From the sequence record AF419420.1: 285 bases of DNA. One strand, 5' to 3'. Position 1 is the first letter of the stretch, and each line of letters begins with the position of its first letter. Made by a program: the position numbers and the translations under genes. This DNA comes from a phage. The notes beneath the pieces were generated by a model, which was given only the letters and a program-made list of their open reading frames with translations, was not told where the DNA came from and did not search any database. Below, piece by piece: positions 1-285 of this stretch.

Positions 1-285
1 ATGGCTATGTCTAACATGACTTACAACAACGTTTTCGACCACGCTTACGAAATGCTGAAAGAAAACATCCGTTATGATGACATCCGTGACACTGATGACC
101 TGCACGATGCTATTCACATGGCTGCCAATAATGCAGTTCCGCACTACTACGCTGACATCTTTAGCGTAATGGCAAGTGAGGGCATTGACCTTGAGTTCGA
201 AGACTCTGGTCTGATGTCTGACACCAAGGACGTAATTCGCATCCTGCAAGCGCGTATCTATGAGCAATTAACGATTGACCTCTGG
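1..285 (+). CDS. ocr: Phage T7-type gene 0.3 protein Ocr (DNA-mimic anti-restriction protein, inhibitor of Type I R-M enzymes); 3'-partial, the stop codon and C-terminal tail lie beyond the window
   Basis: Seen in sequence: ATG at nt 1 and frame 1 open for all 95 codons, while + frames 2 and 3 hit stops almost at once (TGA at 16-18, TAA at 12-14). The translation has 19 Asp+Glu against 6 Lys+Arg. Codon choice is host-preferred: His 4/4 CAC, Arg 4/4 CGT/CGC, Asp 10/13 GAC, Asn 4/6 AAC, Leu mostly CTG. Established knowledge, recalled not searched: the peptide matches T7 gp0.3 Ocr (117 aa) nearly residue for residue, including the [31 protein letters not shown]-terminus and the ...[19 protein letters not shown] segment that precedes the acidic C-terminal tail. 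Confidence 0.95.

Follow-up and report, generated by a model that had tools for sequence, protein, structure and literature searches.

A 5′ segment of phage T7 gene 0.3 (ocr) carrying three private transitions

Introduction

Full-length Ocr forms an all-helical, strongly acidic homodimer that imitates, in shape and in the pattern of its carboxylates, about 24 bp of bent B-form DNA, and it shields the unmodified phage genome when the latter enters the cell. Each 116-residue mature chain of the homodimer bears 34 acidic and 6 basic residues, and the resulting mimic of bent DNA, in shape and charge, obstructs the DNA groove of Type I restriction-modification (R-M) enzymes (PMC3439906). Additionally, Ocr inhibits BREX by binding BrxX/PglX (PMC7261183; PMC11341690) and triggers PARIS, in which it is sensed via AriA (PMC9122126; PMC10802264). 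A first-pass annotation of the sequence analyzed here had credited Ocr with these same three activities, namely inactivation of Type I R-M enzymes by a dimeric DNA mimic, inhibition of BREX and triggering of PARIS, in agreement with the respective reports.

Previous studies have probed Ocr extensively by mutation. Its fold is kept throughout extensive replacement of Asp and Glu by Asn and Gln, and the extreme charge bias is dispensable for anti-restriction, activity falling only once several blocks, each of five or six changes, were put together (Roberts et al. 2012, PMC3439906). Removal of the C-terminal 17 residues in Ocr99 had no effect (PMC3439906), and the last seven residues are dispensable for anti-BREX activity (Isaev et al., PMC7261183). 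T7 phages that escape PARIS carry the ocr changes F54V, L82R/P, T7A or W95-stop (PMC9122126; PMC10802264). The last of these, 284G>A, was isolated on EcoKI+ MG1655/PARIS (PMC9122126 Table S4B) and, by the logic of those authors, leaves a 94-residue Ocr that still copes with EcoKI while evading PARIS (PMC9122126).

Here, we compare with these systems a stretch of 285 nucleotides from a phage sequence record (AF419420.1), referred to below, at its full length, as the window.

Results

The window covers codons 1-95 of T7 gene 0.3

Frame +1 is open across the whole window (1-285), beginning with an ATG and running for 95 codons with no stop. The product matches the Pfam family PF08684 'DNA mimic ocr' with 195.5 bits (gathering cut-off 25 bits; E 2e-58; profile positions 1-93 of 101) and PHROG 2568 'ocr-like anti-restriction' with an E of 1e-47. 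The solved T7 Ocr chains of the PDB (1s7z, 2y7c plus another eight entries) are matched across residues 1-95 as well (E 1.3e-58), with 93 of the 95 residues identical (97.9%). At the DNA level, the alignment to T7 gene 0.3 (AY264774.1 925-1209) is gapless and 282 of 285 positions are identical (98.9%). These matches establish the identity of the gene. The features to which we refer below are the following:

1..285, + strand: ocr / gene 0.3 of phage T7, codons 1-95 (of 117) (open frame, AY264774.1 alignment, PF08684, PDB 1s7z)
127..129, + strand: codon 43, AAT (Asn) for T7 GAT (Asp); G127A, D43N, equal to D42N in mature numbering (alignment)
160..162, + strand: codon 54, TTT (Phe54), wild type; dimer interface, site of the PARIS-escape change F54V (sequence; PMC9122126, PMC10802264)
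217..219, + strand: codon 73, TCT (Ser) for T7 CCT (Pro); C217T, P73S (alignment)
235..237, + strand: codon 79, ATT for ATC (Ile); C237T, synonymous (alignment)
244..246, + strand: codon 82, CTG (Leu82), wild type; dimer interface, site of the PARIS-escape changes L82R and L82P (sequence; PMC10802264, PMC9122126 Table S4B)

In AY264774.1, no annotated CDS precedes gene 0.3, which occupies 925-1278, that is, 117 codons plus a stop. Since the aligned segment is 925-1209, the window holds codons 1-95 of these 117; it is complete at the 5′ end, where it has the native ATG, and truncated at the 3′ end after Trp95. In T7, an acidic tail of 22 residues (EDAEDLLNEYLEEVEEYEEDEE) and then the stop codon follow beyond that end; past window base 285, the native sequence continues as GAAGACGCAGAAGAC..., and up to the stop as GAAGACGCAGAAGACTTGCTC...TAA. 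The window likewise has none of the sequence flanking the gene, which in T7 includes the upstream A1-A3 promoter/R0.3 region. The 95 residues of the window product include 19 Asp/Glu and 6 Lys/Arg (net -13), one carboxylate fewer than residues 1-95 of T7 Ocr. The product displays the acidic excess, the predicted all-helical fold and the profile match of the Ocr family.

The first-pass reading of the window as the T7-type ocr gene therefore stands as regards identity (98.9% of nucleotides, PF08684, PDB), and the near-identity to gene 0.3 that it had proposed as a check extends over the full window in both nucleotides and amino acids (97.9%); no unrelated family gives a better match, the best matches all being Ocr. 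In two respects, however, that reading has to be amended: the window has only 95 of the 117 codons, and its allele is not the reference one. The annotation was also right to call this a known counter-defense gene rather than a novel system. The ocr gene itself is already known, this being the gene of the very protein that typifies its family, and the window brings nothing new in components, architecture or context. In this regard, the other content of the window is limited: no Rfam family was matched at E <= 1, no site resembling a sigma-70 promoter or an intrinsic terminator was detected, and there was no complete ORF longer than 31 aa in the other frames, which contain just two of 31 aa.

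The source phage is T7 itself

A megablast search of 50,697 phage records gave 179 matches. The top-ranked ones are T7 genomes, which align along the entire window with 98.9% identity at coordinates 925-1209, where 'gene 0.3' is annotated. Matches sampled across the ranking range from 98.2 to 98.9% for isolates and laboratory lines of T7, and are followed by vB_EcoP_LNA7, the nearest phage other than T7, at only 94.4%. This gap places the source in T7 itself. The first-pass annotation had proposed a T7-like podophage, an assignment that can thus be narrowed to T7 proper; a source that is merely T7-like is ruled out by the same gap of 98.9% versus 94.4%. The window has no match in PLSDB (72,556 plasmids) or in complete E. 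coli genomes.

The T7 laboratory lines of the MZ3752xx genomes (protein P0122; QZB84632.1 etc.; 18 contigs) carry an Ocr allele that is wild type except for F54L, which affects the residue of the dimer interface that is also altered in the PARIS escaper F54V.

Compared with reference T7 Ocr (UniProt OCR_BPT7; PDB 1S7Z; PF08684), the window shares the gene, the dimer-interface residues, the acidic composition and the predicted four-helix fold, but holds only codons 1-95 of 117 and has three private transitions. The Ocr proteins of other Studiervirinae and relatives (for example Yersinia phage phiA1122, Shigella phage ESh3, Escherichia phage vB_EcoP_LNA7 and Salmonella phage SP6) have the family and annotated role in common with the window product; they differ from it in keeping D43 and P73, in DNA that is at most 94.4% identical and in acidic tails of variable length. 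The laboratory variants, comprising the PARIS escapers, the F54D/A58E dimerization mutant, the charge-block mutants Mut1-16/POcr and the truncations Ocr99 and Ocr109, derive from the same T7 gene as the window, but none of them equals D43N plus P73S, and the window keeps F54, A58, L82 and TGG at codon 95. POcr does carry D42N, as one of all 34 acidic-to-neutral changes. The W95-stop escaper ends at codon 95, where the window also ends with its TGG intact (283-285); this coincidence probably reflects no more than where the window was cut.

Three G:C-to-A:T transitions distinguish the allele

The gapless alignment reveals three differences from the T7 reference, G127A, C217T and C237T, all of them G:C-to-A:T transitions. 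Were substitutions uniformly random, three of three changes would be of this kind with a probability of 0.157 cubed, or 0.0038. A biased process, such as spontaneous or chemically induced mutagenesis of the cytosine-deamination type or template damage, is therefore suggested, and with n = 3 only suggested. Among the G:C-to-A:T changes possible in the ORF, 79 are missense, 51 silent and 4 nonsense, so that the observed two missense and one silent change are as expected from unselected mutation of this type. The most likely origin of the three differences is spontaneous or chemically induced mutation of the cytosine-deamination type in a T7 lineage, either from the laboratory or from nature. Neither the window nor the reference allele contains sites for EcoKI, EcoBI, EcoR124I, EcoAI, BREX (GGTAAG, GATCAG), Dam or Dcm, and the substitutions consequently alter no restriction, BREX or methylation site.

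The allele is absent from the databases searched

When sub-windows were searched by megablast against the 50,697 phage records, every record retained the mismatch at 127 (61-nt sub-window; best match 98.4%), and likewise both mismatches at 217 and 237 (81-nt sub-window; best match 97.5%). Exact-pattern scans recovered neither the A127 nor the T217 context from IMG/VR, JGI metagenome contigs or GTDB genome contigs. T237 in its 27-nt local context occurred on a single IMG/VR contig, which has the wild-type bases at 127 and 217. That contig (L002, IMGVR_UViG_2974616386_000001, 38,821 bp) encodes at 6121-6489 the ocr of a more distant T7 relative, with 27 other differences over the 285 nt and a longer poly-Glu tail.

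Similarly, an exact-sequence lookup among approximately 15 billion proteins found wild-type T7 Ocr on 248 contigs, and found neither the 95-aa fragment nor the full-length D43N, P73S and double-mutant proteins, whose 117-aa sequences we had reconstructed. In the literature, a search for D43N, P73S, D42N and P72S met D42 solely as a salt-bridge residue for PglX. The papers on Ocr chemical modification, on the RNA polymerase-Ocr complex, on E. coli BrxX-Ocr (two papers) and on PARIS structures (two papers) name neither D42/D43 nor P72/P73, and no published mutant of D42N or P72S alone was found in the Ocr mutagenesis and structure literature searched. The combination of D43N, P73S and the silent change is thus a new allele, unrecorded in the databases searched.

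Conservation and structural setting of codons 43 and 73

Structural papers number mature Ocr without Met1. A comparison of residue identities confirmed this, D35, D42, D62, D76 and E109 of the PglX-Ocr paper corresponding to D36, D43, D63, D77 and E110 here. Mature D42, our D43, is among the six Ocr residues that form salt bridges to Salmonella PglX, its partner being K1097 (Went et al. 2024, PMC11341690). Asp occupies position 43 in 110 of 120 family representatives (clustered at 90% identity), and the other ten have Glu (5), Gly (3), Tyr (1) or Ala (1); the position is thus acidic in 115 and Asn in none. Position 73 is Pro in 112 of the same representatives, Ser in 4, Gln in 2, Glu in 1 and Asp in 1. 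The dimer-interface residues F54, A58 and L82, whose roles have been described previously (PMC10802264, PMC7261183), are all wild type in the window translation.

We modeled the 95-aa product with AlphaFold2 from a 57-sequence alignment (mean pLDDT 79.3). The model has helices at residues 8-26, 31-45, 50-60 and 78-94. Asn43 is placed near the C-terminal end of the second helix (31-45), where D43N takes away one surface carboxylate, and Ser73 falls in a low-confidence loop (residues 61-77; window 181-231) ahead of the long last helix, with pLDDT below 50 at residues 70-72. A Foldseek search of the PDB returned Ocr entries as the only significant matches (E of about 1e-9, all <=1e-7; TM 0.62-0.69), including free Ocr (1s7z) and Ocr bound to E. 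coli BrxX (9ex7/8zek), Salmonella PglX (8q56), AriA (8v45), a Vibrio Type I methyltransferase complex (7eew) and an RNA polymerase complex (6r9b). Despite 98% identity, the model superposes on the solved Ocr chains at an rmsd of about 6 A, because loop 61-77 is poorly modeled; given the low confidence of this loop, the model is unfit to judge the effect of P73S.

Discussion

Our analysis makes it very probable that the window is the 5′ 285 nt of T7 gene 0.3 in a private allele that still encodes an active DNA mimic, its changes being approximately neutral. The fold retention, charge tolerance and unimpaired Ocr99 truncation reported by Roberts et al., the truncation data of Isaev et al. and the wild-type state of F54, A58 and L82 together suggest that Ocr D43N/P73S is most likely folded, dimeric and active, any drop in affinity for particular partners being modest at most. 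The natural occurrence of Ser73 in 4 of 120 homologues also counts toward retained function, while the predominance of Pro at this position (112 of 120) counts against neutrality. Moreover, 115 of 120 representatives have an acidic residue 43, none has Asn, and D43 makes one of the six salt bridges to PglX, so that the D43N allele may bind some targets more weakly; PglX is the one documented contact of this residue. On balance, the effect of the point mutations is probably minor, and we infer neutrality or near-neutrality for all three.

A different account of the three differences is that they are not biological at all, but arose as sequencing or assembly errors, by deamination of the template or as changes during preparation, the true sequence being that of reference T7 ocr. 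The purely G:C-to-A:T spectrum is the signature of cytosine deamination, and the presence of wild-type Ocr on 248 contigs, against none for the variant proteins, points the same way. However, this spectrum is equally typical of real mutation, whether spontaneous or chemically induced; three errors in 285 nt would be a high rate for an assembled sequence, and the frame remains open, with neither an indel nor a stop. We therefore regard an artifact as unlikely, though it is the alternative to which we give most weight. It is considerably less likely that D43N/P73S is a functional variant selected in a T7 line under pressure from PARIS, BREX or Type I R-M, with altered binding or triggering of host proteins. 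Missense changes in ocr are the known route of escape from PARIS (F54V, L82R/P, T7A), mature D42 contacts K1097 of PglX, none of the 120 natural representatives has Asn43, and absence from every collection searched is what one would expect of a laboratory-derived mutant. Nevertheless, the known escapers that keep anti-restriction map to the dimer-interface residues F54 and L82, both wild type here, and the published escaper table (PMC9122126 Table S4B) lists none of the three changes. The accompanying silent transition and the 2:1 ratio of missense to silent changes fit unselected mutation, and the loss of one charge on its own is expected to matter little.

It is tempting to hypothesize, although we hold it to be very improbable, that the allele is a specificity variant, selected in a T7 lineage under pressure from a defense that senses or resists Ocr, in which the loss of the D42 carboxylate and the change in the loop preceding the last helix shift binding among Type I R-M enzymes, the BREX proteins PglX/BrxX, RNA polymerase and AriA and leave the dimer interface untouched. 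If true, escape mutations would fall into two classes, F54V/L82R representing the other one. More generally, if real and selected, the allele could inform which surface residues of Ocr tune binding to PglX as opposed to Type I enzymes or PARIS; the evidence favors neutral or artifactual changes. The least probable alternative, in our view a very remote one, concerns the window rather than its substitutions, and holds that it is an Ocr(1-95) coding segment, truncated on purpose and taken from a construct, and not a piece of a phage genome. The window does start exactly at the ATG and end in frame after codon 95, and truncated forms of Ocr have been published (Ocr99, Ocr109, the W95-stop escaper). 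Against this, it contains no stop codon, vector sequence or tag, its codon usage is that of native T7 except for the three transitions, the plasmid and E. coli genome searches were negative, and its boundaries are just as well accounted for if it was cut along a gene call. The value of the window is that of a confirmed annotation, specified as a partial gene from T7 proper, for a protein that is among the best-characterized phage counter-defense proteins.

The comparison with public records also brought up two observations on the annotation of Ocr homologs. Ocr is labeled 'protein kinase', 'serine-threonine kinase' or 'receptor binding protein kinase' in several records (MZ375235.1, MZ375236.1, MZ375238.1, OL964748.1 and NC_047939.1; proteins P0003, P0055, P0068 and P0124). 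The proteins so labeled match PF08684 only, and the kinase labels are probably carried over from the neighboring gene 0.7. Finally, the 140-aa Ocr homolog of Yersinia phage phiA1122 (P0006) has a second Pfam domain, PF27024, beside PF08684. Toward the C terminus, its sequence departs from that of the acidic tail, and it could be a fusion or read-through with a downstream small gene.
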